DNA from: Thermodesulfobacteriota bacterium
Lineage (GTDB): Bacteria; Desulfobacterota; BSN033; UBA1163
Assembly (NCBI GenBank): GCA_030017685.1
Contig: JASEHH010000006.1
Span: forward strand, 3,082-67,081
DNA length: 64,000 nt
Reading direction: 5' to 3'
Below, piece by piece: positions 961 through 57,927 of this stretch; the first letter of the stretch is position 1, and every line of letters begins with the position of its first letter. Made by a program: the position numbers and the translations under genes. The notes below the pieces were generated by a model. The model was not told the DNA's origin, did no database searches, and saw only the letters and a list, made by a program, of their open reading frames with translations.

Positions 961-961
961 A

Positions 962-35464: not shown

Positions 35465-37222
35465 TCAGCCCGGCCCTTCAGGGCTAAGCATAGAGTTACA
35501 GGACTTTTCAAATAAGGAGACCGACGGGTCTATTTGATGAAAGCCCAGGACATCCTTAATTTTTTCCATGGAGCGCTCCAACCCCCCTGAAATGCCAGCC
35601 TGGGAGATGATCTTATCCAGTACGTCTCCGGAGGGATGGATCAGAAAGGAGAGATGATACGCCATAAGGGAAAGGGCGCCTCTTCCCCTGTCTAAAAAGA
35701 CTTCGCCAATCCTTTCATAAAGATCACCTAAATCTTTAAAACTCTCGATGCTGACATTTGTGGGAAGGTTCAGACCCTTCAGCAATGCATCACATTGCTC
35801 GACCAGAGGATCAAGATCACAATGTAGGAAATGAATCTCACTCAATGTGAGCCTTACATCCGGCAGGTTAGGGTCCATATTCAGAGCCTTTATAAAAAAT
35901 TGCAAAGCCTTTGATTCTTCCTCCATCTCCCGGTAAAGATAGGCGAGATTGGTAAGGACCTCGATCCTTTCAGGGTTAATCTCTAATGCCTGAAGTAGAG
36001 CTTTCTCCGCTTCGGCCCATTGGCCGAGTTTTCGGTAGGCAAGTCCCAAATTAGCGCAGTTTTGATCGGAGATTCCTCCCTCTCGAATGGCCTTACTAAA
36101 AAATTCAGCCGCTTCTTTATATTTCCGTTCCTTTAAACTCAGAAGCCCAAGGGCTTCAAAGCTTTTATAGTGGCCTTGGTAACCATCGAGAAATCTTGAT
36201 AGAATCTCTTTTGCCATCTCGATCTCTCCTGTCTCCAAATAACACTGGGCCAGTGTCTGGTATTGGGAATAACGAATCTGGTCAGGGTTGATGGGTAAGA
36301 GGCTCACGTTGATGGGAAAAAGAAGTGATTTCCGCAACGCCTCGATGGCCCCCTTATAATCTTTAACCATAAACAGGCTTTCCCCCAGACAAAAATGGAC
36401 CAGACTCTTCTTTTCATATCCGTTGGAGAGGTTTTTGAAGATGGAAATGGCTTCATCGTACAATTTTAATTCCACGTAGTATTTCCCCAAGAGCAAGGAG
36501 GCATCCATAAAAAATTGTTTCTCATTTTTTTCTATCCTTTCATTCTCTGTAATTTTCCTCATGTGAAAGACCGCCTCGCCCGGTCGTCCCATGCCCGACA
36601 GGGTCCGGCTTGTATAAAAATGGAGCAGAAGATTTTCAGGATCCTTCTCCAATTCTTTTAGAAGAATCCTTAAATTCCTCTCTGATTTTTCTTGTATGGT
36701 TGTGAGGTCTCGATATCCGGAATGTCTGATGTGGATATCCGTATTGACCAGTCTCAGACCTAAACGCTGAAGGTTGTAGACGACCTGCTCATGGATCTTC
36801 CCCTCAAATTTCACTCCGTCCGCCTTCGGAAAAATCCTGATCTGATAAAAGAGGGTTTCCCCATCGATCGGAGATTGACTGTTGATGATGAAATAATAGG
36901 CATCATTCTTTCTGAAAGGGAATCCTCTCTTGAGTCGTCTAATTTTCTCAACCTCCGATTCATCCATTCGATCATCCGCATCGAGCCACAGGATATAATC
37001 TCCGGTGGCATGCCGGATCGATTCATTCCGGGCGGCGCTGAAATCATCGCACCATGTAAAATCATAAACTTTCGCGCCCAATTCGTTTGCAATCTCTTTC
37101 GTTTGATCCGTTGACCCGGTATCGACAACAACCACTTCATCAACCACTCGCTTCACCGAATGGATACAATCCCTTAAATTTTTGGCCTCGTCCTTGACGA
37201 TCATGCACAACGAGAGTTTCAT
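35465..37222 (-). CDS. GT2 glycosyltransferase with TPR repeats (candidate flagellin O-glycosyltransferase)
   Basis: LSLCMIVKDEAKNL...VVVDTGSTD...DFSAARNESI...WLDADD; TPR C-half; last gene before fliC. Confidence 0.88.
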   Translation of the reverse strand: MKLSLCMIVKDEAKNLRDCIHSVKRVVDEVVVVDTGSTDQTKEIANELGAKVYDFTWCDDFSAARNESIRHATGDYILWLDADDRMDESEVEKIRRLKRGFPFRKNDAYYFIINSQSPIDGETLFYQIRIFPKADGVKFEGKIHEQVVYNLQRLGLRLVNTDIHIRHSGYRDLTTIQEKSERNLRILLKELEKDPENLLLHFYTSRTLSGMGRPGEAVFHMRKITENERIEKNEKQFFMDASLLLGKYYVELKLYDEAISIFKNLSNGYEKKSLVHFCLGESLFMVKDYKGAIEALRKSLLFPINVSLLPINPDQIRYSQYQTLAQCYLETGEIEMAKEILSRFLDGYQGHYKSFEALGLLSLKERKYKEAAEFFSKAIREGGISDQNCANLGLAYRKLGQWAEAEKALLQALEINPERIEVLTNLAYLYREMEEESKALQFFIKALNMDPNLPDVRLTLSEIHFLHCDLDPLVEQCDALLKGLNLPTNVSIESFKDLGDLYERIGEVFLDRGRGALSLMAYHLSFLIHPSGDVLDKIISQAGISGGLERSMEKIKDVLGFHQIDPSVSLFEKSCNSMLSPEGPG

Positions 37223-37290
37223 CCCGGAGGACCTGAAACCCTTCCGAATATAGATGGGGGATCTGGGTTGCCATCTCCTTTGTTTTCTCT

Positions 37291-40200
37291 TCAAAGGGCT
37301 ACCCTCCTTTCAGTTTCAATTGACTTCACTCTCTCCAACCCTGCAAGAATCTCTCTGACCTTTGTCTGTGTGCCGTCGAGCCGGTAAGACCGGGTATAAA
37401 TCTCTTCTGCCCTGAGAAAATCTCCTGTCTGAATGAGACAATTACCGAGGGAATTTAACAAGGACAGATCACCGGGCTTGAACTCCAGGACTTTTTCAAA
37501 ACACCGGATGGCCTCTTTGTAGGACTTTTTTATAACCAGGCAGTGTCCGAGATTTTCAAAAGCGTCGAGGTGATCGGGGTTTAGTGTTAAAACCCTATTA
37601 AAGTAAGACATCGATTCATCGAACTTTCCCTCCTGATAAGCGATAACACCAAGGTTATTGATTGCATCGACATCTTCAATATTTTCTTGAAGGAGTCTAT
37701 TAAAAAGGTCTCTTGCCCCCTCCACATCTCCTGACTGGAAAAGCTCTTCCCCTAATGAGACAGAATATTCTTCCGGTTTGAGGGGGGAGTAGTGTCGGCC
37801 GGGGATAAAACCCTGCCTCAAAATCTCCGTCAAATCATAAGGATCTCCGCATTTTAGGTCTTCAGGAATACCCCATTTCTTCTTGAAGATCTCCCAGTTT
37901 CTTTTCAAACTCTCACTATAGTCGATGCCGGATCCCGCAAAAGTTCGACTCCCGAAGTGGTGGACAAAACAGTCCTCTGCGATCCAGGATTCAAAGCCTG
38001 CCAATCTTGCCCGTAAAGAGAAATCGTCATCCTCAAAATTTCCCAGACCGTATCGGCTATCCAAGCCTCCGATCTTCTCCACAACCGCGCTCTTAATGAG
38101 CATACAGAAACCGACCACCCTCCAGAAAGGCTTGGCCTGCCCCCTATGTGTCTGTGCATAATCCTGGGCAAATTGATTTAGACCGGCCAACGATTGGAGA
38201 TCATAAGTGACTTCTTTAATCCATTGAGGTCCCGAAACATAATTCGACATCGGCCCAACAATGCCAATCTTAGGTTCCCGTTCGGCCACAGCGATCATCC
38301 GTTCCAGCCAGCCAGGTGTGACAACCACATCATTGTTCATGAGGAGAAGGTAATCCCCCTTCGCCTCTGCCATGCCCTGATTGTTTCCCCTGGCAAATCC
38401 AAGATTCCTTTCATTAGGAATTACCTTAATGGTCTTACAAAATAATTTGTTTTCCTCTAATTTCCTTTCCTTTTTTTTCTTCTTCTTCTTGATCTTACCT
38501 TTACCCTTCAGATCTCCATCCCACCCTTCCACTTTTCCATCCTTATCTGCTTTTAATCTCCATCCATCAATATCGTCTCTTCCCTTCCTGATCCCGTCTA
38601 AATATTGTAGTGTTCCATCAGTGGATCCATTATCGACAAGGATCAATTCAAAAGGTTCACGGGTATATTTAAAGAGACTTTCAATGCACTTCTTTGTATA
38701 TTCAAGCTGATTGTGGACTAAAATCACAATAGAGACCAGCGGGATATTGATACTTTCGGATTCTTGCAAAACCCCCTCGTCACCCCTGTTTGGTAAGGAA
38801 TAAGGTCGGATGAAACCGAAATTGGAGTGAGTAAAGGAACCATCCTTTTTAAGGATAAAGTCGTGATCAATCTTGCCCAACCACCTTCTATGCAAGAGAC
38901 GTGTGTTTTCATCAGTTCTTCTATGCCGTTCCGGCCCACTTTTCGATTCATGATGGATCACCACACTTTCAGGTTGATACACGAGCTTCCATGACCTCTC
39001 CTGGAATTTGAAACATAAATCCACATCTTCGTATCCATTCCAGAACTCTTCTTCAAATCCTCCAGCCTGCCGGAAGGCTGATTTTCTCACTAACAGACAG
39101 GCGGCCGTGAGTGCCTGAAACGTCCGTCTCTGATTCGCATCATTATAATCTCCCGGCTTTTCATAGTAGACATGACGGGCAACCAAAGGGTCTGGTAATT
39201 TCCTGTCGTCGATGATGACCACACCAGCATGCTGAATCTTCCCGTCGGGGAAGAGAAGCTTGCTCCCTGCGGCGGCGACAGAGGGATCATTCTCCAGGAT
39301 CTCGAGAAGAGGTTCCAGCCATCCTTTTTGAGGTTCCGTGTCATTATTGAGAAACATGAGATAACTCGATCGGGCCGCCTCCGCTCCTTGGTTACAGGCT
39401 TTCGCAAAGCCGAGGTTTGCGTCGTTCCGTATGACCCGCAGAAGCCCCTTTGCCGCCTCATGACGCAGGAAATCGGTTGTTCCGTCCGTCGAGGCGTTAT
39501 CCACGACAATAATTTCATAATTTGAATCCTGCGTATTCTGATAAATAGATTTCAGGCATTGTCGATTCAGGCACAGGTTGTTGAAAACGGGAATAATGAT
39601 GGAGACCTTCGGATTCTCAATCTTCTCTTTCTCTTCTTTGGGCGGTAAAGCTGTTAAAGGTTGAGATTCTCCATTTACTCTTAATTCCGGAGAAACCCCC
39701 TCTTCTTCTGGATTTGCCAAGGCATCAAGGTATTCCTTGGCAGCCATGTTCTCAGGTTCGATTTCCAAAACCTGTTTAAAAAAATAGGAAGCGTCCCCAA
39801 GCCGACCTGCTCTGAGGCAGTAATTTCCCACTCCCAGGAGCGCCTCTACATCCATCGGCTGGTCAGCAAGCACCATTTGATAAAGCTGAAGGGCTTCCTT
39901 CATCTGCCCTAATTCCATGCGCAAGTCTGCCATATTTTTCATGGCATTCCGGTTCTTTGGGTCAGCTTTGATGGATTGGATAAAATGTTCCAGAGCAAGT
40001 TTTCTGTCGCCCCGGTGAAAATAGAGGACGCCTAAATCGTCATGGGCAAGAGAATGAGCAGGAAATAGGATTAAGAGCTTTTCAAGTGCTGAAATCGCCT
40101 CTTCTATTAGGCTTTCTTTGATCAGCTGTTGTATTCGATCATATTCCCGTTTAACCATTTCATCAAAATTCTTAAAAAAGGTCTCCTGCACTTGGTGCAA

Positions 40201-43200
40201 ATTGGGCTTACCTTTTGAATATTCCCTATATTTTTCATAGATCCTTTTCATATTCCGGAGAAAATCGATCTTTTTGCCACCGGTCATTGTCGTGCCATCT
40301 TCTCTCCAGCTGAACTCACAGGTGACCTTCCGGATATGGGCGAATTTAAACTTTCTGGACAAGCGAATCCACAGGTCCCAGTCTTCCTGGGTGGTCAGAT
40401 CTTCATCGAAGCAGCCTACTTCATCTAAACAGGATTTCTCATGCATAAAACAGAGAACAGGAACAAAATTCTCCAGCAGAATCCGGTCATCATCGAAATC
40501 AAAGGAATAAGGCACATCCTGCTTTACAACAGCATATCTGCCATTCACTTTTTTTTGGTGAGCCCGGTGGGCATCCGTATAAGCAACCTTATAATCACTG
40601 CCTTCCAAGAACTGGACCAATGTCTCCAGGTGATCAGGGTAGTAAAGATCATCATCGTCCAGATAGGCAATGTATTTCCCCTTTGCCATTTTTATCCCCG
40701 TGTTCCGGGCCGCAGCCAGGCCAAGATTCCGGCCATGCCTGACATAGGTCATCCTTCCGGCCTGGTTCAAAAACGTCACCACATTCTCAACATCGACTCC
40801 TGCATCATTGACAATGATAATTTCATAGTTGGAATAAGTCTGGTTGAGAATGCTCCTTAGGGTCTCCACCAGCATGTCCGGTCGATTATAGGTCGGGACG
40901 ATGACAGAAACGAGAGGGAATTCTCCTTCGGGTTCCTCCTTCCTGATCTTGTCGATTCTCTCTCCCTCTTTTTTAAATGTGGATTCGCTGGGGGTATCCC
41001 AATGCATGATGTGCGCCTTCTCGTCGCCGGGATTCATCCGGTTGGCACAGACCTTACATTCCGCAATAGGGCAATCCTTCCCGGCCTGTGAGGAGATTCG
41101 CAATGCTCGGTACATCTCCCCATTCCAGAACTCTTCTATAGGATGGGTCAAAGCATTTCCAAAAGGATAAACCCCTCCTTCAACTTTCTCCTTGAAGTGG
41201 ACCTCGGCTCCTCCGCAGGGATAGATCTCACCGTCAAAACCGACCATCAACTGAGTCTCCGGCCACACACAAGGTCGAGGGCCAGCATATTCCTTGAATA
41301 AAGGTTCATGGAAGAAATGAATTCCATATTTCTCCGCAAGAGATTTGGCTTTCTCAACCATCTGATCGGAGAGTTCTTTATGGTAGAAAAGGGAGTCCTG
41401 ATTGTTTAATCGGTCTTCTTCCCGATCTACATTAAGATGACGAATTCGTTCAGGATAAAAACGGGTATAGAAAATATTGAGAGCATCGATTCCAATCTCC
41501 CTCCCGAGCTCAACCAGGGCCGGCAGGTCTTCGATATTCAGGCGGTTGATCGCACTGGAGAATTGCAACACCGGGCCCGTCCCTTTTTCCCTCCGGAGGG
41601 CTACAAATCTTCTGGCGTTCTGGCATACTTTATCGAAACAGTCGACTTGCATGACTCGTTTATAGACGTTTCGACTGGCCGCATTGATGGAAATGTTGAG
41701 ATCGGAAATCTTGCACCGAAGGAATGCCTCGGAGATCTCCTCGGTGAGGGCGATCCCGTTGGTGGTGATGGAGATGCCTACGCCTGAATATCGGTCATGG
41801 GTATATTGGATGATCGGGATCAGGTGGGGGTTCAATAATGGATCTCCCGCCCCAGCTAAGACGATTTTTTGAAAACGCTCCAATTTCAAATTGGCAGCCA
41901 TCCGTTGAAACTTTTCGAGAGTGATGAGCCGTTTGCTCTCGCTCCGGAAATAGTCCCCTCCGCAGAAAATGCATTTGGCGTTGCATTTGTCGATCATGAG
42001 GAAATGGACCTGAACCGGGAAGCGACTCGTCCAGCCATTTGTTGAGGTTGGGTTTTTTGGCCTTTCCGTTGCGGTATTTCTACATTCCTTCTTTTCCCTT
42101 AAACAAGGTCTTCTTTCCATTTTAATCCCCCAGACCTGATAAAGAGCCAAGAGGTTTCCAGATTGACGTTGATTTCGAGAAGGATTCAGGACATAAGACC
42201 CGCTGGGTATTTCGATATAAATCCTATCCTGAGCTATCGAGCTAAACCCCTGACTTAGAAATAAGCGGTGAAGTTCCTCCTCGCTTAGCCAATCATCCAC
42301 TGGCTGTCGGCTGTGATTTGTGAGTTTCATCCAAGTATCGAAGACCTCGGCTCGTGGGGTGGTCAAGATGACATAGCCACCCGGTTTCGTTAGAAAGCTT
42401 AGCTCACGGACAAATTGAGCCTGCTCTGCTCGGGGAACATGCTCAATAACCTCAGAAGCCAAAACTACGTCATAAGGGTGGAAATCCGGCTTGGTGAGGA
42501 TCGTTTTGGCATATCCCACACAGAAATTCAGATTGGGGAAATACCTTCTGGCAGCTGCAATCACCTCAGCGGCCGGATCAACCCCTCCGGCAATACCATA
42601 AGAAGAAGCCAAATGGGTTAACCATCCACGTCCGCAACCAACATCCAAAATTCGTAATTTTTGAGTGCAGTCCACCTTCCCCGATTGAATAATCTTGACT
42701 AAGATAGAAGATATTTTGGACCAACGAGCCTTTTCATCCTCATTCGGATCCGGTCCTGAAAAATACGAACCCTTCGTAAACAAGTTTACATAATAGGCAT
42801 CCTGTCGCGCTTTATCGGAAGAAAAGGCCCTTTTCTCTTTATAAGATAGCGAACTTCCCTCTGAGGATTTTTCCATGTCATCAGAATGACCAAAACGAGA
42901 AACCGTATTCGGATCCTTTTCTAACTCTCCATAGTCTGGTTCCTTTCCGGTTTCTATCCAGTCAAGAACCTGTCGAATTCGGTTTTCAATGGTATGAAAT
43001 CGCCGGAGTTTGCGGGAGGCATTCTCAGCAATGACTCTGCTGAAATCTGGTTCGTTCTGAAGCCTTTGTATATGGGACGCTAATTGGGAAGGATCTTTCT
43101 TGTTAAAAAGTAAAATTTCCCTGCCGTCATCAAACAGCGCTTTATTGCGTGGGCGATTCGGCACCTCCCACGAAATGACCGGTCGTCCGGCAGCCATGGC

Positions 43201-45756: not shown

Positions 45757-46566
45757 TTAAGCCTGTCTTGCTCCTCTTTTGCACTGTCTTGGGGAAACCA
45801 AAGAACGTTGTACCTCTGGCTTCCCTGAATTGCTTCGTTGCGTCCTCTTCCGAAGCGGCACTTCTTTGATTCTATCTCTCCCCTCTCCTCCCCGAATGGT
45901 GAGCAGAGAGATTCCGTTAGGGGCAGAAAAGGTTTCTGCAAGACGGTTCAAAGTGCTCATGGATACAACATCGCCCGGTCCCACAATCGGCTCTCCTGTG
46001 CGACTTACCAGACCTCCTTCTAAAACAACGATGATCTCTTCCGGGTCCCTATGCCGAAGTTCTGAAATCTCCTCAACCCTTTCAACGGAGAGAGTATGCC
46101 CGTGGAGGTTGTAGCGTTGATCCAGACCCTTCTTCGCCGGACTCAATTGAATACAATTCTCTGTCAGCGGAACGATCGCCTCCGTCCCTTCATAAGGTTT
46201 TTCTTTGCGGCCATAGGCATCCTCCAGCCTCACCAGATTGTCTTTCTCACGGGGGGTCTCAACCTCGATCACGGCAATCCCTTCAGGCGAAACCGCCTCT
46301 GTCGAATGGAAGAGCCCCTCCCGAATCATCAATTTGCTCGGGGATTTTAGATGAACGGAGTCATTTAAAAAGGAGAGAACAGCCTCTCCGGATAGAAGAA
46401 TAAGGCCTGTCTTCTTACGGGGATGGCAATGGAGGGAGGTCTTTGCATGTTGCTTGATATAAAGATACCATATTCCAACCATGTGGTTCTGAAACATCAA
46501 GTATTCAAAACCCCAAGGTTTTTTAACGATTATCTGTTCATAACTGGTCATATCGGACTCCATCAT
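45757..46566 (-). CDS. Cupin-domain protein (sugar isomerase-like)
   Basis: VKKPWGFEY...TSLHCHP...LFHSTEA...EVETP; start may be 46551. Confidence 0.75.
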   Translation of the reverse strand: MMESDMTSYEQIIVKKPWGFEYLMFQNHMVGIWYLYIKQHAKTSLHCHPRKKTGLILLSGEAVLSFLNDSVHLKSPSKLMIREGLFHSTEAVSPEGIAVIEVETPREKDNLVRLEDAYGRKEKPYEGTEAIVPLTENCIQLSPAKKGLDQRYNLHGHTLSVERVEEISELRHRDPEEIIVVLEGGLVSRTGEPIVGPGDVVSMSTLNRLAETFSAPNGISLLTIRGGEGRDRIKEVPLRKRTQRSNSGKPEVQRSLVSPRQCKRGARQA

Positions 46567-49243: not shown

Positions 49244-50163
49244 AATTTCTCTATCGACTCTCGAACCTCTTCTTCGATGTTTGATATCTTCTCCAGAAGG
49301 CCCATTTTCCTGAGCTCTTCTTTTACCAGGGTAAACCTGTCCCACTCTGTAGGCCCGTCTTGTCCTACTCCGACATGCCAGTGGGCTCTGCAGGTATCAA
49401 TGTTCAAAAAGGCGGGAAGACCCTTGATCAATTCCTGTGTCCGTTGGATGAGGGTCCATGGGTCATCGCTGGTCTCAAAGGCCTGCATGCCAAGGGCCCC
49501 TGCCACCTTGGTCATGCTCCATGACCGCCGTTTGTCCACCGTGGTTAGGATCGAGAGATTATTATCTTCGCATATAAATAAGACCGGCAATCTATGGGTC
49601 ACTGCAAACCCCATGGCCGCAAAGACATAATCTTCCTCGGCCGCTCCGTCTCCAAAGAGACATACTGTCGGTTTGTTGCTTCCCAGGGCCGCGCCCACAC
49701 CAAGGGAAACGTTCTCCCCGATGAGTCCGTGATGGCCAAACATGGTAATATTGTTTTCATGGCATTGAATGCAATTTGATCCTGCTCTGCCTCCGCTTGT
49801 CCCACCTGGCAATCCCAGAAGCTCATCTCGCAGTTTCTCCGGGGCACCTCCAAAGGCCAGATAGATCCCGTGACATCGATGCTGGGCAAAGATCATGTAT
49901 TCGGGGATGACCAGCGATAAGGCAGCCCCGATGGCTTCCTGCCCGAGAGAGAGATAGACCGGATAGGTGATCAGACCGTCCCCTGCGGCGCGAACGATTC
50001 CAAGTTCAAAATATCGGATCAGACACATCCGGCGAAAGAGGGTGAGGGAGGTGTTGGGATGGAAAGACTGGATAAGATCCGAAATCACACCCAAGGAGGG
50101 TGATCTCCCTAAGGCCTCCTCGTCTGGAACGGCTTCCCTATTTTTTTCCAAAAGATTTGCCAT
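49204..50163 (-). CDS. ThDP-dependent dehydrogenase E1 alpha subunit
   Basis: YLSLGQEAI, AQHRCHG, ThDP motif GDGAAEE...EDNN. Confidence 0.9.
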   Translation of the reverse strand: MANLLEKNREAVPDEEALGRSPSLGVISDLIQSFHPNTSLTLFRRMCLIRYFELGIVRAAGDGLITYPVYLSLGQEAIGAALSLVIPEYMIFAQHRCHGIYLAFGGAPEKLRDELLGLPGGTSGGRAGSNCIQCHENNITMFGHHGLIGENVSLGVGAALGSNKPTVCLFGDGAAEEDYVFAAMGFAVTHRLPVLFICEDNNLSILTTVDKRRSWSMTKVAGALGMQAFETSDDPWTLIQRTQELIKGLPAFLNIDTCRAHWHVGVGQDGPTEWDRFTLVKEELRKMGLLEKISNIEEEVRESIEKLWDPKQLRKRLGR

Positions 50164-50165: not shown

Positions 50166-50825
50166 TCAGCCCTCATAAAATAAGGCCATTTGAATCGCCA
50201 ATGAATCGTTAAAGTCCTTGATCCTCATCACCTCTTTGGGAAAGACCGCTTCCCGGTGCTCCCGGCCAATAAAGTCGATGCCCGCTCTCATGGCCCCTTC
50301 GTAATCCGTAATGGAATCGCCGATCATCACCATCTCATCCGATCTCACCTCTGACTCTGAAAGGATGGATCCGATAATCTCCCCTTTCTTTTTGGGTGCG
50401 CCGTAGACGCCTTTGAAATAGTGGCTGAGATGTCGGCCTGAGATGATCCGGGAGAGTTCGTCCTCGGGTGTTCCCGAGGCAATGTAGAAATGGGTGACTC
50501 GATAGTACCGATTGAGAAAACGATCCGCACCCGGCACCCAGGGGGCCTGTTCCACCGCCTTCTCAACGAGCTCTGAAAAACGCTCCCAGAGGCTCACTTC
50601 CTCGTCATGAGAGGGATCCCTTCCCAGAAACTCCCTATGACAATATCGAATCTTTTCGAATCTTGAGATGCCTCCGTACCGTTGATCGTATTGGACAACC
50701 TTCTCCACCACCTCAGGCCCATACTCTTTATAGAGTTCGGCGTAGGCCTTTGTCTTGATATCGGCTGATTCCACCAGGACCCCGTCGAAGTCGAAAACGA
50801 TCACACGGTATTTCAACAGCCTCAT
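50166..50825 (-). CDS. HAD-family phosphatase
   Basis: FDFDGVLVES motif I; MIGDSITD motif IV. Confidence 0.88.
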   Translation of the reverse strand: MRLLKYRVIVFDFDGVLVESADIKTKAYAELYKEYGPEVVEKVVQYDQRYGGISRFEKIRYCHREFLGRDPSHDEEVSLWERFSELVEKAVEQAPWVPGADRFLNRYYRVTHFYIASGTPEDELSRIISGRHLSHYFKGVYGAPKKKGEIIGSILSESEVRSDEMVMIGDSITDYEGAMRAGIDFIGREHREAVFPKEVMRIKDFNDSLAIQMALFYEG

Positions 50826-51346
50826 TCTCTTTCCTTTGCCATATAGTCGATGACCGCCTTCATAAAGTCACCATTATTGTTATAGTGGGGTGAGGTGATG
50901 AAATTTCCATCGATGACCACCGGGACTTTATGCTGATAGTCGGCGCCGGAATTTTTAAGGTCAACCTCCAGGCTCCAAAAGGCAGTCATCTTACGGCCTC
51001 GGGTAATCCCTGCTGTGATGAGAATCCACGGGCCATGACAGATGGCCGCAATCAATTTCTTCCGATCGTTCATCTTTTTCACAAATTCCAGAACCTCTGG
51101 TAGAAGCCGAAGTCGATCTGGAGCCTCAAACCCCCCTGGCAATAGCACAAGGTCAAAGGCATCGGCATCGAGCTCATCTGTGCTGATCGTTGGCTTGGCT
51201 GGGACACCGTATTTACCATAAACAACGGCTTTATCTTTGGTGGCCACATCGACTGAAAATCCAGCTTCAATCAGCCTGTAATACGGATAAATATATTCCT
51301 CATCCTGAAAGCCAGGACCTGTGATGATGACCGCTCTTTTCTTCAT
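50822..51346 (-). CDS. DJ-1/PfpI family protein
   Basis: GFQDEE, LLPGG, AAICHGPW nucleophile elbow. Confidence 0.9.
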   Translation of the reverse strand: MKKRAVIITGPGFQDEEYIYPYYRLIEAGFSVDVATKDKAVVYGKYGVPAKPTISTDELDADAFDLVLLPGGFEAPDRLRLLPEVLEFVKKMNDRKKLIAAICHGPWILITAGITRGRKMTAFWSLEVDLKNSGADYQHKVPVVIDGNFITSPHYNNNGDFMKAVIDYMAKERE

Positions 51347-51380: not shown

Positions 51381-52655
51381 CTAACGAGTCTCCAGAAACC
51401 TTCCCAATACATCCAGAACATACTCCATCTCTTCCAGTCCCAGGTCTTGGTGGACACCAATGTGTATGCCGTGTTTTCCAATATATTCCGCATTCGGGAA
51501 CTGTCCGGGTTGATAGCCAAGATAGGCAAACCCCGCACATTGGGTTGGCATGGAGGCGAAGAGGGTACGGGTCTCAACGCCATTCTCCTCAAGATAGTGG
51601 GTGAGTTCAGCACGGGTGAAAGATGCCCCTTCCTGAAAAATGATCGGAATGGCATGAGGACCAATCCGCTCATGAGGCTCCTCATGGATTGTAGTTAAAT
51701 AGGGGCTGAAGCGGTTGAATCGGTCAAGGACATAAAGGAGGTTATGACGTCGTTTCTCAACGATATCGAGATAATTTTCGATATTTCCCAGCCCGATGGC
51801 CGCTTCAATCTCGTTCATCTTAGAGGAATAACCGACCCGCTCGAATACAAACCGGATGTCCTCACCCCCGTTGCCATGAAAACGCTTCTGGCAGTACGCG
51901 GATGCCGTATTCAGTGTGCACCGCTTGCACTTACAGGCCCGGCCGTGGGAGCGGAGGGAGCGCAGGATCTCGGCGAACTCTTCCCGATTCGTCGTCACAA
52001 TGCCGCCTTCTCCCGTGGTGATGATGTGGGCTACGTAGAGACTGAAGGCCGCAAGATCCGAGAGCGTGCCAACCGGCTTTCCCTTATACATGGCTCCATG
52101 GGCCTCGGCCGCATCCTCAATGACGTAAAGTCCATGCCTTCTGGCAATCGCATTGATGACATCCATGTCGGCTGGCTTTCCCATGAGATGGACCGGCATG
52201 ATCGCTCGCGTCTTCTCTGTGATGGCTCCCTCAATCTGGCTGATATCGATGTTGAGAGTCTTCCTGTCGATATCTACAAATACCGGCTTGAAACCCGCAT
52301 GGACCACCGCATTGCCCGTGGCGACGAAGGAGAGGGCTGGAAGGATCACTTCATCGCCTCGCTTCGCTCCAAAGTCATGGAGCACGGCAAGTGCCAGAAT
52401 ATCCGCATCCGTGCCACTGCTTACGGCCACGGCTTCCTTCACCCCAAGGAGGTCTGCAAATCTTTCCTCGAACTGTCGCACGTACTTGCCGCTTGAGATA
52501 CGAGCCATCTCAAGGATGTCTCCAATAAGCCTCCTGGAGAGTTCCGGGATTTGGATCGTCCCGAAGGTAACCCTTCTCTTTTCACGGAAAAACTTCTTCC
52601 TCACAGGAGGTCTCATCGAAAGTACTGTTCGATCTCTTGCCTCATCCATCTCCAT
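51381..52655 (-). CDS. DegT/DnrJ-fold PLP enzyme with His at the catalytic Lys position (ColD/E1-type sugar C3 dehydratase candidate)
   Basis: SSGTDA, PVHLMG, IEDAAEAHG, FSLYVAH210IITTGEGG; Cys cluster GRACKCKRC...YC. Confidence 0.82.
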   Translation of the reverse strand: MEMDEARDRTVLSMRPPVRKKFFREKRRVTFGTIQIPELSRRLIGDILEMARISSGKYVRQFEERFADLLGVKEAVAVSSGTDADILALAVLHDFGAKRGDEVILPALSFVATGNAVVHAGFKPVFVDIDRKTLNIDISQIEGAITEKTRAIMPVHLMGKPADMDVINAIARRHGLYVIEDAAEAHGAMYKGKPVGTLSDLAAFSLYVAHIITTGEGGIVTTNREEFAEILRSLRSHGRACKCKRCTLNTASAYCQKRFHGNGGEDIRFVFERVGYSSKMNEIEAAIGLGNIENYLDIVEKRRHNLLYVLDRFNRFSPYLTTIHEEPHERIGPHAIPIIFQEGASFTRAELTHYLEENGVETRTLFASMPTQCAGFAYLGYQPGQFPNAEYIGKHGIHIGVHQDLGLEEMEYVLDVLGRFLETR

Positions 52656-53580
52656 TTTCTTTCTCCAAGAACCATCGAAAAGTTTCTTTTAATGCGGACT
52701 TGAAGTCATGGAAAGGCCGCCAGCCCATGGCCCAGAGTTTGCTGGAATCGAGAAGTTTCACGGGCATGCCATCTGCCTTATTGGCATCAAATCGCAACTC
52801 CCCTTTGTAACCGACGACTTCTTTGATCAAGACGGCAAGTTCCTTGATGGAGAGCGCCATCCCTGTTCCGAGATTAATGGGTCGATCATCGTCATATTCG
52901 TTCATCACGAAAATACAGGCATTCGCCAGGTCGCCAGCGAAGATAAATTCCCGCTGTGCGGCGCCCGTCCCCCAGATCTCTATATACTCTGCATGAGAGA
53001 GTTTTGCCTCATGCATCCTTCGGATGAGTCCAGCCACCACATGGGAGTTCTCTGGGCTGAAATCATCCCCTGGACCAAAGGCATTGGCCGGAATAGCTGA
53101 AATGAAATTCACCCCATACTGCTGACGATAGGCCTGACACAATTTCATGCCAGCGATCTTGGCTAGAGCATAGGCCTCATTGGTCGGTTCGAGGAGCCCG
53201 GTGAGCAAGGCGTCTTCTTTCATGGGTTGCGTGCAGAACTTTGGATAGCTACAGGAACTTGCCAGAAAAAGAAGTTTCTTCGCCCCGTGGCAGTAGGCAG
53301 AGCGAATGACATGACATTCCACCAGAAGATTGTCGAGCATGAGTTGTGCAGGATATTTCTGGTTGGCCATGATGCCACCTGATCTCCCGGCGGCCAAGAA
53401 GACGTATTCGGGCTTCTTACGAGCGAAGAAGGCGTCTACCTGAGTCCAATTGATCAACTCAGGTTCTTCTCTTGGTCTGTCGACAATGTGAGTGTACCCT
53501 TGGCGGTCCAATGCGCGCAGGATGGCTCCTCCGATCATGGTCTCGCCACCCGCCACATAAATTTTTTCATGCTTTTCCAA
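52642..53580 (-). CDS. fcl: GDP-L-fucose synthase/ColC-like epimerase-reductase
   Basis: AAGRSGGIMAN...LASSCSYPK...EPTNEAYALAK...WGTGAAQREF. Confidence 0.9.
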   Translation of the reverse strand: MEKHEKIYVAGGETMIGGAILRALDRQGYTHIVDRPREEPELINWTQVDAFFARKKPEYVFLAAGRSGGIMANQKYPAQLMLDNLLVECHVIRSAYCHGAKKLLFLASSCSYPKFCTQPMKEDALLTGLLEPTNEAYALAKIAGMKLCQAYRQQYGVNFISAIPANAFGPGDDFSPENSHVVAGLIRRMHEAKLSHAEYIEIWGTGAAQREFIFAGDLANACIFVMNEYDDDRPINLGTGMALSIKELAVLIKEVVGYKGELRFDANKADGMPVKLLDSSKLWAMGWRPFHDFKSALKETFRWFLEKENGDG

Positions 53581-53589
53581 ATCCCTCTC

Positions 53590-54654
53590 CTAAGATGGAT
53601 TAGGGGTAAGTTCTTGGAAGGACCGGATCGGCCGGCAAGCCCGATCCCTTTCCTCCGCCGAGTAATCCTCCTCCGAATCGAAAAAGATGATCTGACTTCC
53701 GGAGAATTCAATTTTGAACGGGACATGGATCAATTTGTTCAGTCTCTCTCTCACTTCTCCCTGCCTGGAAGGAGGGACGAAAAGCAAAATGAATCCGCCA
53801 CCTCCGGCTCCTGTTAATTTTCCGCCGATGGCCCCTGCTGAGATGGCTTCCTCGTAGATCTCATCCACATGAGAGTTGGAAACCTTGGAACTCAAGCTCC
53901 GTTTAGCCTGCCATGCCTCATGGAGGAGTTCGCCAAAGCCGGATATATCTTCACCGTTATTCAGGATCGAAATGCTTTCCTCAATTAAATCTTTCATAAT
54001 CCGAAGCTGCCTTTTTCTGCCTTCCATATCATTGACATAACTCTCGGCAATATTGGATGCCGTCCGTTTGATCCCTGTGTAGAAGAGCACCAGATGGGAA
54101 TTCAGTTCTTTGATCCGCTCCGGCGAAAGGGTAATAGGTCTGACAGAAAATGTGCCATTTGGAAGAAAGGTGATATGGTTGAAGCCACCGAAAGCCGCCG
54201 ACACCTGATCCTGGGACCCCACGGTCTCCTTCAGAACCTCCTGCTCAATATAGATGCTTTCTGTGGCTAATTGCTGCTTGCTTGGCATATAGCCTTTGAG
54301 GGCGTACAGGGCATGAAGGAGTCCCACGGTAAAAGAAGAACTGGTCCCCATCCCGCTCCGTGCTGGAAGATCCCCATCATGATGGATCTCCACGCCACGA
54401 TCGATATTCAAATGGCGTAAGATCTCCCGGACAGCGGGGTGGGCGATTTCGTCAATGGTCTGGCAGCTTTCGATCTTCGAGTAAACCAATCGGATCTTGT
54501 GTTCGAAAAAAGGCGGGAGATAGCGGCATGTCAGATAACAGTATTTGTCGATGGCAGTGGCGAGCACTGCCCCCCCATGTTTCCGGTACCATGCTGGATA
54601 GTCTGTTCCGCCACCGAAGAAAGAAATCCGAAAAGGAGTTCTGCTAATAATCAT
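53590..54654 (-). CDS. hddA: D-glycero-alpha-D-manno-heptose-7-phosphate kinase (GHMP kinase)
   Basis: RTPFRISFFGGGTDYP, DLPARSGMGTSS, GSQDQ, GGKLTGAGGGGF. Confidence 0.9.
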   Translation of the reverse strand: MIISRTPFRISFFGGGTDYPAWYRKHGGAVLATAIDKYCYLTCRYLPPFFEHKIRLVYSKIESCQTIDEIAHPAVREILRHLNIDRGVEIHHDGDLPARSGMGTSSSFTVGLLHALYALKGYMPSKQQLATESIYIEQEVLKETVGSQDQVSAAFGGFNHITFLPNGTFSVRPITLSPERIKELNSHLVLFYTGIKRTASNIAESYVNDMEGRKRQLRIMKDLIEESISILNNGEDISGFGELLHEAWQAKRSLSSKVSNSHVDEIYEEAISAGAIGGKLTGAGGGGFILLFVPPSRQGEVRERLNKLIHVPFKIEFSGSQIIFFDSEEDYSAEERDRACRPIRSFQELTPNPS

Positions 54655-55834
54655 GGATATTCACCTCTTTCTCTTGACCAAACAGGTCACGCTCGACCAA
54701 GGCACATAAGATGTGTTCGATCGCCAGATGGGCCTCTTGAATGTATTGGGTATCGGTGCTCGGAACTGAAATGGTCACATCCGCCCTCCCTTCCCGGTCG
54801 CCCTCCTTGCCTTTCAGAACGATGGTATGCATCTCTCCTGCTTGTGCGACTTTGACCGCACGGACCACATTAGCGGAGTTGCCACTCGTACTGATGCCGA
54901 TCAGGACATCTCCTCCCCTTCCAAGGGCCTGGATCTGACGTTCGAAAATGCCTTCGAACCCACAATCATTGGCGAAGGCTGTCAGAAAGGAGGTGTCCGT
55001 GGTCAAGGCAATGGCTGGCAGCCCGGGTCGATCAAAGTTCTTCGTCAGCCGACTGACAAATTCCGCAGCCATGTGCTGGCAATCGGCTGCACTTCCCCCA
55101 TTCCCGCACAACAGCAACTTTCCACCAGACCGGAACGTTTCCGAAATCAGGTCAGCCGCAGCGATAATCGAATCTACACAGCTCTCAACCATCTGCCGCT
55201 TCACCTCACCACTCTCAAAGAGGTGGTTCCTGACCCTATTGCGAAGCCGATCCACGCTGGGCTGCATTTTTTCTTTTGTCCCACCTGAGGCAAGAAGTTG
55301 CTGGATGAGGTTGGCCCCGGCTAATAAATCATCCACAACATAATCGGGTGGGAGCAGGGTACAAGAAGCAGAAGACTGGTCTCCATAGCCAGTACGAACC
55401 AATAGCGTCGTGGCCCCAACTCTTTTCCCAAGCTCAATGTCACATGCCTTATCGCCAATCACGAAACAGGCTTTTGGATCAAAGTCAAGTTCCTTCGCCG
55501 CCAACTCAAGGAGTCCGGGTCTGGGTTTACGGCAGGAACAATCCTCCTCGGGTCTATGGGGACAAACATAGATTCCATCCAAGTGAACATCTTCCGCCTT
55601 CAGTAGTTCACGGAGACGCTGATGAATGAGTTCCAGACGCATTGGGTCAAAGTATCCTCTTCCGATGCCGGACTGATTGGTGATCACAACGAGACCGAGG
55701 TCCATCTGACTCATTTGGTGCATGCCTTGAACGACTCCAGGGATCAATTCGACCCGATCAGGGTCCGAAAGATAATGACGCTCAATGTTTATCGTCCCGT
55801 CACGATCCAAAACTACGAAACGTCGCTGGGTCAT
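54644..55834 (-). CDS. gmhB/gmhA: Fused heptose-bisphosphate phosphatase (GmhB) and phosphoheptose isomerase (GmhA)
   Basis: LDRDGTIN...CPH...CSCRKPRPG; then CGNGGSAADCQH, ISTSGNS, IQEAH. Confidence 0.92.
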   Translation of the reverse strand: MTQRRFVVLDRDGTINIERHYLSDPDRVELIPGVVQGMHQMSQMDLGLVVITNQSGIGRGYFDPMRLELIHQRLRELLKAEDVHLDGIYVCPHRPEEDCSCRKPRPGLLELAAKELDFDPKACFVIGDKACDIELGKRVGATTLLVRTGYGDQSSASCTLLPPDYVVDDLLAGANLIQQLLASGGTKEKMQPSVDRLRNRVRNHLFESGEVKRQMVESCVDSIIAAADLISETFRSGGKLLLCGNGGSAADCQHMAAEFVSRLTKNFDRPGLPAIALTTDTSFLTAFANDCGFEGIFERQIQALGRGGDVLIGISTSGNSANVVRAVKVAQAGEMHTIVLKGKEGDREGRADVTISVPSTDTQYIQEAHLAIEHILCALVERDLFGQEKEVNIHDY

Positions 55835-56559
55835 GCCTCTGTCCTCCCAGCAAAAAAATGTTCTGCTGAAGCATAGGCTTCAGGAGTGCCAATATCTAAA
55901 AAGAGTCCCTTGCTGAGATAGCCGTAAAGTCTCTGGCCGATCCAAGCGGAAAGCATCTCCTGTTCCAAAGAGACAGGTCTGTTGGCCGGAATGCTCAGCA
56001 ATAGCTGATGATGGATAAGATAGACGCCTGCGTTAATCCAGCCGGGTGTACCGTTGTCATTTTTTTCGGCAAATTGCGTCAGACGGCTATTCGCATCCAC
56101 GTTCACCCTGCCGTAACGATTCGTATTGGGGACTTCAGTTAAGAGGATCGTGGCGTTTGCATTTCGTGCCAGATGCCAGGACCAAAAAGCACTCAAGTCG
56201 ACTGAACAATAGGAATCACCGTTCATGACCAGTACGGTATCCGACTGAAACAAAGGGGATGCTAACCGGAGGGCACCGGCCGTACCCAAGGGTTCTGCTT
56301 CCTGGGAATAGACCAAATGGAGTCCGCGGTAAGTATCTCCAAACATAGCCCGGACTTCCTCACCCCGGTGGCCTGTGCACAAGACAACATACTGGAGTCC
56401 GCCAGCGGCTACCTGATCCAGTAGGTAAGCCAAAAAAGGTCGTCCACAAACCTCTGCCAGGACCTTTTGTTGGTCTCCGATCATGGAACGAAGTCGAGTT
56501 CCCAGGCCACCAGCGAGAATGGCTGCCGTAATATTGGATAGGTCTTTCATCCTCTTCAC
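55831..56559 (-). CDS. hddC: Heptose-1-phosphate guanylyltransferase-like nucleotidyltransferase
   Basis: ILAGGLGTRLR, EPLGTAGAL, NGDSY, INAGVY, FLDIGTPE; beside hddA/gmhAB. Confidence 0.85.
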   Translation of the reverse strand: MKRMKDLSNITAAILAGGLGTRLRSMIGDQQKVLAEVCGRPFLAYLLDQVAAGGLQYVVLCTGHRGEEVRAMFGDTYRGLHLVYSQEAEPLGTAGALRLASPLFQSDTVLVMNGDSYCSVDLSAFWSWHLARNANATILLTEVPNTNRYGRVNVDANSRLTQFAEKNDNGTPGWINAGVYLIHHQLLLSIPANRPVSLEQEMLSAWIGQRLYGYLSKGLFLDIGTPEAYASAEHFFAGRTEA

Positions 56560-57494
56560 ACGTTCTTAAAGGGACTGCGTCCCAGCATATGAAATCCCTT
56601 CAACAACTCTTTGATCCCATCGTCCAGAGAACGCCGAGCCTCAAAACCTGTTTTCCGCAACCGCTCACTCGAAACGATGTAATTACGTTTGTCCGGATCG
56701 TTACCCACTTCTGAGAAATGGATGTAAAAGTGAGGCACGTGTTCTTTGATCTTCAAGGCCAGTTCAGCCTTGGAAAGGTTGGCAACATCCAACCCTACGT
56801 TGTAGGGCCTCCCGATCATCTCCTCAGCATGTTCGATGCAATGAATAAAACAATCTGCCACATCACGAATGTGGACAAAATTTCGCTTGAAATCCTTCTC
56901 GAAAATGACAAGATAGCCCTCTGTGATGGCTACACAAACGAAATGGTTTACCAGAAGATCCAACCGCAAGCGAGGTGACATGCCGAAGACCGTTGCCAGA
57001 CGGAGACTGATCACATTAGGTCTCTCCAGTAGCTCGGCTTCAGCCTGTACTTTGGTCTGGCCATAGAGGGAGATCGGTTGCATAGGCGTTTCTTCAGTGC
57101 AATAGACATCCCCTGACTGGATGCCATAGCCGCTATTGGTGGTCGGGAAGATCACCAATTGGTTTGGGCTTCGAAGACGGTTCAGCATCTGTATTGCTTC
57201 CAGATTGACTGATCTTGCGAGTTGAGGATCTTGATCACAGGCTGGCGCCCCTACAACGGCTGCGAGAGGTATCAACACGTCCGCATCCTTCATAAGATCG
57301 CGCATTAACTTTTCGTTTCGGGCATCTCCCCACACAAATTCGAAATGGGGGTGGGAGCAGAGATGAAATAAACTCTGTTGGCCATACATCAGGTTATCAA
57401 TGGCAGTCACCTGATACCCGGCATTGAGAAGATGCTCACATAAAATTGAACCCAGGTAACCAGCACTACCTGTAATTAGGACGCAAGTCCTCAT
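56556..57494 (-). CDS. Extended SDR resembling C. jejuni Cj1427 GDP-heptose C4 dehydrogenase
   Basis: GSAGYLGS, LAAVVGAPAC, PTTNSGYG, PISLYGQTK, RLATVFGMSPRLRLDLLVN, DPDKRNY. Confidence 0.82.
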   Translation of the reverse strand: MRTCVLITGSAGYLGSILCEHLLNAGYQVTAIDNLMYGQQSLFHLCSHPHFEFVWGDARNEKLMRDLMKDADVLIPLAAVVGAPACDQDPQLARSVNLEAIQMLNRLRSPNQLVIFPTTNSGYGIQSGDVYCTEETPMQPISLYGQTKVQAEAELLERPNVISLRLATVFGMSPRLRLDLLVNHFVCVAITEGYLVIFEKDFKRNFVHIRDVADCFIHCIEHAEEMIGRPYNVGLDVANLSKAELALKIKEHVPHFYIHFSEVGNDPDKRNYIVSSERLRKTGFEARRSLDDGIKELLKGFHMLGRSPFKNV

Positions 57495-57505
57495 GGGTCC
57501 TCCTT

Positions 57506-57871
57506 CTACTCCTTAAAAAAGTTATAAACTTCAACCTTAACCACCTCAGCGACACGGTGTGCTAGGAGATCAATTTTGTTTGAACTTTCTCCTCTGTAGC
57601 CGTGATGGAGTTCTCTTTTAATATCCGACAAACTCATTCCTTTATTTCTTAAGTTTTTTATCTCTTCGATCACCATGATATTTTGATGGGTATATCGCCT
57701 CTGGCCGCCTTGAGTTTTTTCAGGAATAAAGAGGCCGTCAAACTCTTTCTCCCAGAAGCGTAAGGTATGCTTTGGAAGATGAAGCCTTTGGCTTGCTTCA
57801 GATATGGTTAGAAGCCGGTTATTTTCATACATAAATTTTATCTCCAACTGGTTATTCCCTTTGATACTCAT
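57506..57871 (-). CDS. MerR-type HTH protein lacking a large effector domain
   Basis: LTISEASQRLHLPKHTLRFWEKEF...GGQRRY...GMSLSDIK. Confidence 0.85.
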   Translation of the reverse strand: MSIKGNNQLEIKFMYENNRLLTISEASQRLHLPKHTLRFWEKEFDGLFIPEKTQGGQRRYTHQNIMVIEEIKNLRNKGMSLSDIKRELHHGYRGESSNKIDLLAHRVAEVVKVEVYNFFKE

Positions 57872-57911
57872 CGGATTTGTTCCATTAAACTTTAACTTTC
57901 ACTTGAACATC

Positions 57912-57927
57912 AGCAAAGGCTGTGCCA
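57912..57927 (-). promoter_or_regulatory. Sigma54 promoter of the glycosylation operon
   Basis: TGGCAC-AGCCT-TTGCT, consensus -24/-12. Confidence 0.75.

Follow-up and report, generated by a model that had tools for sequence, protein, structure and literature searches.

Which sugar would a bacterium make when genes resembling those of GDP-heptose synthesis, a sugar 3-dehydrase and two cobalamin-binding radical enzymes are gathered next to its flagellin gene, and to what would that sugar be attached? The question is raised by a 64,000-nucleotide stretch of contig JASEHH010000006.1 (assembly GCA_030017685.1, Thermodesulfobacteriota), called here the window, in which positions 35465-57871 of the minus strand hold 16 co-oriented, closely spaced open reading frames (ORFs; inter-ORF spacing -40 to +76 nucleotides). 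Our analyses suggest, with a probability that we put at about 0.6, that this locus is a sigma54-controlled flagellin O-glycosylation island making a 3-deoxy sugar from GDP-heptose. Judged from gene order, the interval between flgM and fliC is the constant chromosomal position of the island within a clade of uncultured Thermodesulfobacteriota (deltaproteobacteria). Islands of this type are already known; the sugar product is chemically unsettled and probably undescribed. The operon proteins were classified with Pfam and with NCBIfam at its curated equivalog cut-offs, and the largest of them, of 2270 amino acids (aa), by a segment scan. In order of transcription, the genes encode a MerR-family regulator, a Cj1427-like short-chain dehydrogenase/reductase (SDR), an HddC-like nucleotidyltransferase, a GmhB-GmhA fusion, an HddA-like kinase, an Fcl-like protein, a His-type enzyme of the DegT family, hereafter DegT(His), and a DJ-1/PfpI protein, followed by a HAD phosphatase-like protein, the alpha and beta subunits of a thiamine diphosphate (TPP)-dependent enzyme of the pyruvate dehydrogenase (PDH) E1 type, a 579-aa B12-binding radical S-adenosylmethionine (SAM) protein, a bicupin, a second such radical SAM protein of 520 aa, the 2270-aa protein and a 609-aa family 2 glycosyltransferase with tetratricopeptide repeats (GT2-TPR). 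The surrounding flagellar order is flgN-flgK-flgL-(csrA)-fliW, flgM, the 16-gene operon and then fliC-flaG-fliD (Table 1). A preliminary description of the locus had given an accurate gene inventory and sigma54 box, leaving unmentioned the MerR, DJ-1/PfpI, HAD and bicupin genes and, in the 2270-aa protein, the radical-SAM/SPASM domain and the methyltransferase domain.

The starting point of the pathway is indicated by four GDP-heptose entry activities encoded in consecutive genes, namely a SIS isomerase and a HAD-IIIA phosphatase in the fusion, a GHMP kinase and a nucleotidyltransferase. The best solved relatives of the kinase, 3K85, 4USK and 4N3O (1e-41 to 1e-35), carry annotations as heptose kinases or putative sugar kinases, and a fucokinase follows at 1e-16. 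Because the transferase best matches guanylyltransferase models, the donor is predicted to be GDP-linked. None of the four reaches its equivalog cut-off: the GmhB half of the fusion scores 176.5 bits against 178, the GmhA half 208 against 276 and 187 against 209, HddA 152 against 600 and HddC 139 against 300. The substrate might instead be a hexose or another sugar, with the kinase and the nucleotidyltransferase acting as a salvage-type pair, as the far sub-cut-off HddA and HddC scores, the better score of the mannose-1-phosphate guanylyltransferase model and the lack of GmhA/GmhB in most related loci would allow. But the GmhB-GmhA fusion lies between the HddC-like and HddA-like genes in the window, the heptose or putative sugar kinase relatives of the kinase lead fucokinase by about 25 orders of magnitude, and the SDR is 51% identical to PDB 6VO6, which is presumably the heptose-specific GDP-heptose C4-dehydrogenase Cj1427. 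With both sides considered, a non-heptose substrate appears very unlikely.

From GDP-heptose, the residues conserved in the next two enzymes point to a probable passage through a 4-keto to a 3-deoxy intermediate. The SDR matches 6VO6 over its full length (E 3.5e-104, 51% identity over 308 aa), and its motif TNSGYG, which aligns with NTNSGYG of 6VO6, is without the Asp/Glu acid/base residue of 4,6-dehydratases, so that the C6 hydroxyl should be kept. In agreement with the preliminary description, no 4,6-dehydratase or pseudaminic/legionaminic acid (Pse/Leg) genes occur in the 64-kb window, and neither do genes for Maf, an E3 reductase, Wzx/Wzy or transporters. In the DegT-family protein, His210 aligns with His220 of E1, the iron-sulfur (Fe-S) 3-dehydrase of 3,6-dideoxyhexose pathways, and with the Schiff-base Lys of perosamine synthase, and a CxCxxCx8C insert (C241, C243, C246 and C255) aligns with the Cys-rich Fe-S region of E1 (GRDCYCAPGCDNTC). 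His210 and all four Cys are invariant across 12 homologues from several phyla (74-80% identity). The RfbH equivalog score is 276 against a cut-off of 423 and the window contains no dedicated E3 reductase partner, which argues that the protein works like E1/SpnQ and is not an RfbH orthologue. It is by all these features an enzyme of the E1/SpnQ type, predicted to carry an Fe-S cluster and to depend on electrons whose source, as no E3 gene lies nearby, would need to be a general ferredoxin or flavodoxin. SpnQ offers a precedent for such a general supply without a dedicated E3. An assignment to the ColD type, glutamate-dependent and devoid of Fe-S, was considered and rejected given the invariant four-Cys insert. 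In one 738-aa database protein (P0084), a DegT(His) enzyme is fused to an SDR epimerase/dehydratase domain, which speaks for a direct functional link between the 3-dehydrase and an SDR partner.

The Fcl-like protein retains Ser107, Cys109, Tyr136, Lys140 and His179 of Escherichia coli GDP-fucose synthase, the ColC/Fcl catalytic set, but its NCBIfam Fcl score of 409 does not reach the cut-off of 500, so that it is not a bona fide fucose synthase. This part of the pathway has been explored in the test tube: Cj1427, whose tightly bound NADH is recycled by alpha-ketoglutarate, yields GDP-D-glycero-3-deoxy-4-keto-heptose (reported at m/z 616.08) when combined with a 3-dehydratase, and Fcl-like reductases complete the product, in what were presented as novel in vitro combinations (PMC10680097). 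In Campylobacter jejuni itself, 3-deoxygenation follows 4,6-dehydration and is carried out by a glutamate-dependent enzyme without an Fe-S cluster (PMC10680097). The operon looks, from its gene content, like a natural version of that in vitro route. The preliminary description had likewise proposed a GDP-heptose entry route, C4 oxidation by a Cj1427-like SDR, a His-type DegT enzyme and an Fcl/ColC-type enzyme; all four are supported by the joint presence of the fusion, the HddA-like and the HddC-like genes and by the residues listed above, with the DegT enzyme narrowed to the Fe-S E1 type.

The acceptor of the sugar is, judging from comparison with relatives, very likely flagellin, in line with what had been proposed before. 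The 609-aa GT2-TPR protein is one of a large family, and its orthologues (51-59% identity) lie directly 5' of fliC in 3/3 contigs examined (L171, L172 and L173, in our numbering of related loci). In each of them the orthologue is followed by a flagellin of about 277 aa and by flaG-fliD-fliS, and the sugar genes upstream differ: a TagF-like protein, APS (adenosine 5'-phosphosulfate) kinase, ATP sulfurylase and more GT2-TPR proteins in L171 (56% identity), a radical-SAM/SPASM protein, an SDR, a 383-aa DegT protein and a 1689-aa multidomain glycosyltransferase in L172 (59%), and a nucleotidyltransferase, a methyltransferase and a 1701-aa multidomain protein in L173 (51%), placed between flgM and fliC. 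Because the GT2-TPR-fliC linkage is constant and the upstream genes vary, we read the locus as a flagellin glycosylation island with a conserved anchor and exchangeable cargo. In L171, which is of the same lineage as L001, positions 1-4400 encode a TagF-like glycerophosphotransferase/TPR protein, APS kinase, ATP sulfurylase and a pyruvate-kinase-like protein between the heptose cassette and the GT2-TPR genes, a hint that the flagellin glycan of that organism may be sulfated or phospho-linked. The central residues 140-195 of FliC in the window are 29% Ser/Thr.

The second putative transfer protein, of 2270 aa, contains in order a GT-B-like domain (PF13524), a class-I SAM methyltransferase, a radical-SAM/SPASM domain, a GT2 domain, TPR, two further GT2 domains and TPR. 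Every one of these domains recurs, at 44-62% identity, in Geobacter sp. L005 beside flaG. The idea that PF13524 marks a universally co-occurring heptosyltransferase found partial support only: L005/L006 and L169 have clear homologues, and in L003, L167 and L168 the divergence of the PF13524 proteins is too great for a link to be drawn. The third GT2 domain carries a Lys-rich insert, KKKKKKKERK, encoded at 38465-38490 by (AAG)4 plus a run of A8, a possible, though short, slipped-strand site. None of the 16 operon proteins contains a membrane segment (no 19-residue hydrophobic stretch), and Pfam detected no flippase, polymerase, priming transferase, lipid-carrier or oligosaccharyltransferase family in the window.

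The transcription signals also suggest an assignment for the operon. Exact matches to TGGCAC-N5-TTGC number two in the window, against 0.08 expected; the box upstream of the operon is the only intergenic one, the second lying within a methyl-accepting chemotaxis protein gene, and L001/L002, of the window's own clade, have an exact box at the homologous site 5' of the MerR gene despite diverged surrounding intergenic DNA. Its GG/GC elements, canonical spacing, intergenic position and conservation identify it as the predicted sigma54-dependent promoter that drives the island. No cognate AAA+ activator is encoded in the window. MerR is also the first gene in L001/L002 (68% identity). Runs of (A)AAGTT repeats stand directly 3' of the box both in the window (57875-57912, e.g. 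CAAGTGAAAGTTAAAGTTTAA) and in L001 (4730-4775); they may represent a conserved 5' untranslated or operator element, for which the MerR-type product of the first gene is the obvious candidate binder. The sigma28-type pattern TAAR-N15-GNCGATAR has exactly two matches in the window, against 0.07 expected. One belongs to fliC, which lies beyond a 588-nucleotide gap from the operon end under its own promoter, and the other to the divergent ORF139-flgM pair.

Past the 3-deoxy intermediate, the operon combines TPP, cobalamin radical SAM, DJ-1 and bicupin proteins, for which we know of no characterised precedent. The alpha and beta subunits form a PDH-E1-like heterodimer inside a sugar cluster, with the TPP motif, read from the sequence, intact and with no E2 or E3 gene in the window; the best solved match of the alpha subunit is human PDH E1-alpha (2.6e-17). 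Their fold (E1_dh with Transket_pyr/Transketolase_C) is not the acetolactate-synthase fold (TPP_enzyme_N/M/C) of YerE. For YerE the two-carbon branching of a 4-keto sugar is proven, and it belongs to a different fold family from PDH-like pairs. In the PDH-like heterodimers EvdU5/EvdS3, C4 branching has only been hypothesised (PMC10338323), so that the C4 branching by the alpha/beta pair put forward in the preliminary description is not established; from family resemblance we consider it possible, if somewhat doubtful. The HAD gene is present only in the window and in L001/L002 among the related loci tabulated. The bicupin was modelled with AlphaFold from 25 homologues (predicted local distance difference test, pLDDT, 82), and its HxH...H site is invariant. 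A function as an RmlC-like 3,5-epimerase was unsupported: the sequence search of solved structures was empty, and the Foldseek matches were all generic metal cupins, among them PMI, KdgF and the cupin domain of CapF. The C-terminal basic tail of the bicupin (45757-45880, about 40 residues) is predicted to be disordered (pLDDT <50) and is missing from nearly all homologues, which are about 225 aa long.

Both B12 radical SAM proteins have an N-terminal B12-binding domain and a CX3CX2C core (motifs at residues 247 and 228), and their best curated families, HpnJ, BchE and PhpK-like, are all far under cut-off. C-methylation by these proteins is, on such family evidence, a tentative proposal that falls a little short of an even chance. 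A phosphonate or P-methylation role, raised by the PhpK-like best NCBIfam match of the 579-aa protein, was rejected with scores of about 106 against cut-offs of 575-600; neither PEP mutase nor phosphonopyruvate decarboxylase is encoded in the window, which also counts against it. The two genes differ in their distribution. The 520-aa type is found in most related loci (42-65% identity). The 579-aa gene has a G+C content of 0.41 (0.42 at third codon positions) against about 0.51 for the genes on either side, and L001 has a different radical SAM gene plus a NUDIX gene at its position; it is therefore probably a recent, variable addition, a swapped cassette gene.

How far this pathway extends was traced by scanning species-representative genomes and metagenomes, the groups and counts below being those among the matches listed, and by tabulating partner genes in related loci with tblastn. 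The DegT family with His and four Cys comprises more than 7000 database proteins below 1e-30, the top 120 at 72-95% identity. Module loci occur in Thermodesulfobacteriota, Geobacteraceae, Nitrospirota (including magnetotactic members), Omnitrophota, Planctomycetota (including Brocadiia), Elusimicrobiota, Chloroflexota and several other phyla, in all more than 10 phyla, as metagenome-assembled genomes. The metagenome scan contributed 28 more related loci and no additional flagellar contexts. The recurrent partners of DegT(His) are the Cj1427-like SDR (about 50% identity), HddA-like (about 57%) and HddC-like (about 37%) proteins, the 520-aa-type B12 radical SAM protein (about 48%), often an Fcl-like SDR (about 44%), and a TPP alpha/beta pair, which in most phyla is of the split transketolase type and not of the PDH type. 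The PDH-type pair, DJ-1 and bicupin occur together in the window, L001, L042, L074 and L170 and, by tblastn, also in L013 and L090; GmhA/GmhB lie inside the cassette only in the window, L001, L012 and L167. The preliminary description had suggested searching genomes for the cassette next to fliC. It adjoins flagellar genes in L001/L002 and flaG in Geobacter sp. L005, comes after fliC-flaG-fliD in Nitrospiraceae L018 and accompanies a Maf-like/PF13524 protein and a 554-aa flagellin in L168, whereas most cassettes have no flagellar neighbours. A related cassette is present in a cultured Geobacteraceae isolate, Geomonas limicola (L170; GCA_014193675.1, BLXZ01000004.1, 31259-51963), with genes for an SDR, a nucleotidyltransferase, a kinase, a GD_AH-family dehydratase, DJ-1, E1 alpha/beta, a bicupin, three radical SAM proteins, an aldo-keto reductase, two SDRs and DegT, which makes this species a tractable organism for solving the chemistry. 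DegT(His)-family genes are also found in bins labelled Woesearchaeota or other archaea (L074 and L077/L082/L085), L074 having most of the cassette; they reflect either horizontal transfer or mis-binning.

Several observations weigh against reading the locus as an island that makes a heptose-derived sugar for flagellin. The HddA-like, HddC-like, E1-like and Fcl-like proteins are all below their NCBIfam equivalog cut-offs, an electron-transfer partner for the Fe-S dehydrase is absent from the window, and the TPP and radical SAM functions are assigned from family membership only. The B12 radical SAM proteins have weak nearest solved relatives, the uncharacterised 9CCB and the diol dehydratase AprD4 (also CysS and TsrM); with all curated families far sub-cut-off and a diol dehydratase as the closest named solved relative, the methylation claimed in the preliminary description is not established. 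The same holds for its single sugar, as the one 4-keto group would be contested between an Fcl-like reductase and an enzyme branching C4, which bears on the order of the steps or the number of products. Lastly, most related cassettes are without GmhA/GmhB and far from flagellar genes (none within 10 kb), and that of L169 sits in a Wzz/Wzx/Bac_transf polysaccharide locus.

The setting of the L169 cassette and the restriction of flagellar neighbours to four kinds of contig with DegT above 50% identity (L001/L002, L005, L018 and L168, among the matches listed), are what one would expect if the cassette sugar were destined for lipopolysaccharide, exopolysaccharide or S-layer and its flagellar placement were incidental. 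Recent preprints describe GDP-heptose and oligoheptose S-layer glycans in anammox bacteria, which GDP-heptose is thought to feed (bioRxiv 10.64898/2026.04.20.719630), so that GDP-heptose-based protein glycosylation exists in one module-bearing phylum. But the window operon is without membrane protein or lipid-carrier enzyme, it ends in TPR-glycosyltransferases with fliC-adjacent orthologues, and sigma28 flagellar promoters flank it; we hold a non-flagellar destination in this organism to be improbable. As most cassettes are non-flagellar and one is part of a Wzz/Wzx locus, the sugar module would rather be a general donor pathway that this clade recruited for flagellin. To call the locus a new system, as had been done, is thus an overstatement for a glycosylation island with swappable cargo whose module also occurs far from flagellar genes and in a Wzx-type locus; the cargo pathway is an undescribed natural combination that is widespread in uncultured anaerobes.

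The competition for the 4-keto group bears on another possibility, which keeps the same island and the same target. The sugar would be a plain colitose-type 3-deoxy-L-heptose, formed by Cj1427-like oxidation, E1-like 3-dehydration and then Fcl/ColC-like 5-epimerisation and 4-reduction, and the block of DJ-1, HAD, E1, radical SAM and bicupin genes would produce, in place of a C4 branch, a second sugar or some substituent other than a sugar. As with ColD/ColC, the Fcl-like and DegT proteins seem to be partners, their genes overlapping and the Fcl-like protein keeping all epimerase/reductase residues; L167 has the entry steps only, and L169 the entry steps with TPP alpha/beta and Fcl and no B12 radical SAM; and DJ-1, PDH-type E1 alpha/beta and bicupin are inherited jointly as a separable block. 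Yet a TPP alpha/beta pair of some type accompanies DegT(His) in most loci, usually beside a B12 radical SAM gene, which argues for one pathway, and we consider the plain colitose-type product unlikely. The converse and most ambitious proposal is that the module (SDR, Fe-S pyridoxamine phosphate (PMP) 3-dehydrase, TPP pair and class-B radical SAM protein) builds an undescribed 3-deoxy sugar of at least nine carbons, C-branched or chain-extended, used on flagellin and other surface glycoconjugates by anaerobes of more than 10 mostly uncultured phyla. We regard this as rather unlikely in its entirety; if true, such a sugar would, without being ulosonic, be the functional equivalent of what pseudaminic and legionaminic acids are to better-known flagella.

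Table 1. Coordinates of the operon genes, flanking flagellar genes and transcription signals in the window.
Feature	Position	Strand	Basis and remarks
Flagellin FliC, 277 aa, proposed acceptor	34043..34876	-	PF00669 + PF00700
Sigma28-type promoter of fliC, TAAG-N15-GTCGATAG	35017..35043	-	Pattern match
Candidate operon terminator, GC-rich hairpin then AUUUUAU	35215..35345	-	Fold -70.9 kcal/mol, z-score -2.6
609-aa GT2-TPR glycosyltransferase, fliC-adjacent anchor of the island	35465..37294	-	Pfam; synteny in L171, L172, L173
2270-aa soluble assembly protein	37291..44103	-	Segment scan, eight domains
B12-binding radical SAM protein, 520 aa, core-module type	44118..45680	-	PF02310 + PF04055; CPYHCTFC
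Bicupin, HxH...H metal motif in N-terminal barrel, disordered basic tail	45757..46566	-	Alignment + AlphaFold
B12-binding radical SAM protein, 579 aa	46584..48323	-	PF02310 + PF04055; CRGNCTFC
TPP-dependent E1 beta subunit	48344..49243	-	PF02779 + PF02780; ORF open to 49345, likely start Met35
TPP-dependent E1 alpha subunit (PDH-like), GDG...NN thiamine-diphosphate motif	49204..50163	-	PF00676
HAD-IA phosphatase-like protein	50166..50825	-	PF13419
DJ-1/PfpI-family protein, AICHG nucleophile elbow (Cys-His)	50822..51346	-	PF01965 at 6e-47; TIGR01382 143.9 vs cut-off 139 (passed)
DegT-family PMP-dependent 3-dehydrase, E1 (Fe-S) type	51381..52655	-	Alignment; true start probably slightly downstream of 52655
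Fcl/ColC-like GDP-4-keto-sugar 3,5-epimerase/4-reductase	52642..53580	-	E. coli GDP-fucose synthase 1BSV, E 8e-87
HddA-like GHMP kinase (heptose-7-phosphate 1-kinase)	53590..54654	-	Closest solved relatives; NCBIfam HddA sub-cut-off
GmhB (N-terminal HAD phosphatase)-GmhA (C-terminal SIS isomerase) fusion	54644..55834	-	NCBIfam
HddC-like sugar-1-phosphate guanylyltransferase	55831..56559	-	NCBIfam: mannose-1-phosphate guanylyltransferase 171 bits, HddC 139, both sub-cut-off
Cj1427-like SDR, predicted GDP-heptose C4-dehydrogenase	56556..57494	-	PDB 6VO6 match, full length
MerR-family helix-turn-helix regulator, operon gene 1	57506..57871	-	PF13411 at 3e-20; G+C 0.39
Sigma54-type -24/-12 promoter element TGGCACAGCCTTTGC	57913..57927	-	Exact consensus; 42 nucleotides 5' of first ATG
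Sigma28-type promoter of divergent ORF139-flgM pair	58151..58177	+	Pattern match
FlgM	58621-58959	+	PF04316 match

Outside the operon, the DNA between its end and fliC contains a GC-rich repeated element (35238-35330), in which a 15-nucleotide unit, CCCCTGCCTACCGGC, stands as two tandem copies at 35238-35267; these copies and related CCTGCCTGCC motifs jointly form a long hairpin. On the other flank, ORF139 (58205-58624, 139 aa) is without a Pfam match, overlaps flgM by 4 nucleotides (translational coupling) and is 66% identical in L001; under its sigma28-type promoter, it is by these features a predicted conserved, uncharacterised partner of the anti-sigma-28 factor. The rest of the window (about 40 kb) encodes chemotaxis, motility/Mot and two-component proteins and no further sugar genes.

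For the flagellin island that we favour, the following mechanism can be proposed. The island would be transcribed from the sigma54 promoter, a regulatory class different from that of the sigma28-driven fliC, and one possible effect is that newly made flagellin finds sugar donors and transferases at hand. The Cj1427-like SDR would oxidise C4 without 4,6-dehydration, keeping C6 and C7, and the His/Fe-S DegT enzyme would then remove the 3-hydroxyl by the E1 route, with PMP and external electrons from ferredoxin or flavodoxin, to give GDP-3-deoxy-4-keto-heptose. In the tailoring that could follow, the Fcl/ColC-like protein would epimerise C5 and reduce C4, or else reduce a side-chain ketone; the TPP alpha/beta pair would move a two-carbon unit to a sugar carbonyl, C4 being the obvious one for a yersiniose-like branch; and the B12 radical SAM proteins, the bicupin and the DJ-1/PfpI protein might alter the sugar further. 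The 609-aa GT2-TPR protein, joined by the 2270-aa protein with its four glycosyltransferase domains, both of them soluble, would finally build a short glycan on Ser/Thr of FliC, presumably in the cytoplasm, before flagellin export.

The glycans of flagellin matter for filament assembly, for recognition by phages and for detection by the immune system. To our knowledge, those described come almost all from pathogens and contain nonulosonic acids or common hexoses, and neither a heptose-derived nor a C-branched sugar on a flagellin turned up in our full-text literature searches. The donor to which this locus points is heptose-derived, and its first three modification steps lend themselves to prediction with some confidence; the locus also shows a design of conserved anchor transferase and swappable sugar cargo at a fixed flagellar site. 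Since the module recurs across phyla, solving it once would give hundreds of loci an annotation and would probably enrich bacterial glycobiology by a new monosaccharide.

Among known systems, the island most resembles those of the type of Caulobacter FlmG (PMC7591256), which are fliC-adjacent, use soluble TPR-fused glycosyltransferases and their own nucleotide-sugar genes, have no lipid carrier or flippase and carry cargo that varies among relatives. Unlike in them, the predicted donor here is heptose-based and not Pse/Leg, GlcNAc, rhamnose or viosamine, assembly is largely fused in one 2270-aa protein with methyltransferase and radical-SAM/SPASM domains, and the promoter is of the sigma54 type. 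Listeria GmaR and the Pseudomonas/Burkholderia islands presumably are further cases of TPR-glycosyltransferase flagellin islands. The capsular GDP-heptose pathways of C. jejuni (Cj1427, the HS:5 C3-dehydratase and Fcl-like C4-reductases; PMC10680097) follow a similar enzyme route, but there the pairing of Cj1427 with a 3-dehydratase was an artificial in vitro mix whereas here the genes for it occur together naturally, the dehydratase being of the E1 Fe-S type and the predicted target a protein rather than a capsule. With the 3,6-dideoxyhexose and yersiniose pathways (E1/E3 RfbH/AscC, ColD/ColC, YerE/YerF) the operon shares a His-for-Lys PMP enzyme, an E1-like Cys cluster, a ColC/Fcl-like partner and, as a candidate for placing a two-carbon branch on the 3-deoxy-4-keto intermediate, a TPP enzyme; it differs by a predicted GDP-heptose in place of a CDP-hexose, by the lack of 6-deoxygenation and of an E3 gene, and by a TPP enzyme that is a PDH-E1-type heterodimer, YerE being an acetolactate-synthase-type flavoprotein. 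Closer in this respect are orthosomycin clusters, in which AviB1/AviB2 are a further PDH-like pair proposed for C4-acetyl branched sugars. Like EvdU5/EvdS3 (PMC10338323), themselves unvalidated and likened here by description, the pair in the window consists of E1 alpha and beta without E2/E3, in a nucleotide-sugar cluster and beside a 4-keto-sugar-forming SDR, but it travels with DJ-1/PfpI and a bicupin.

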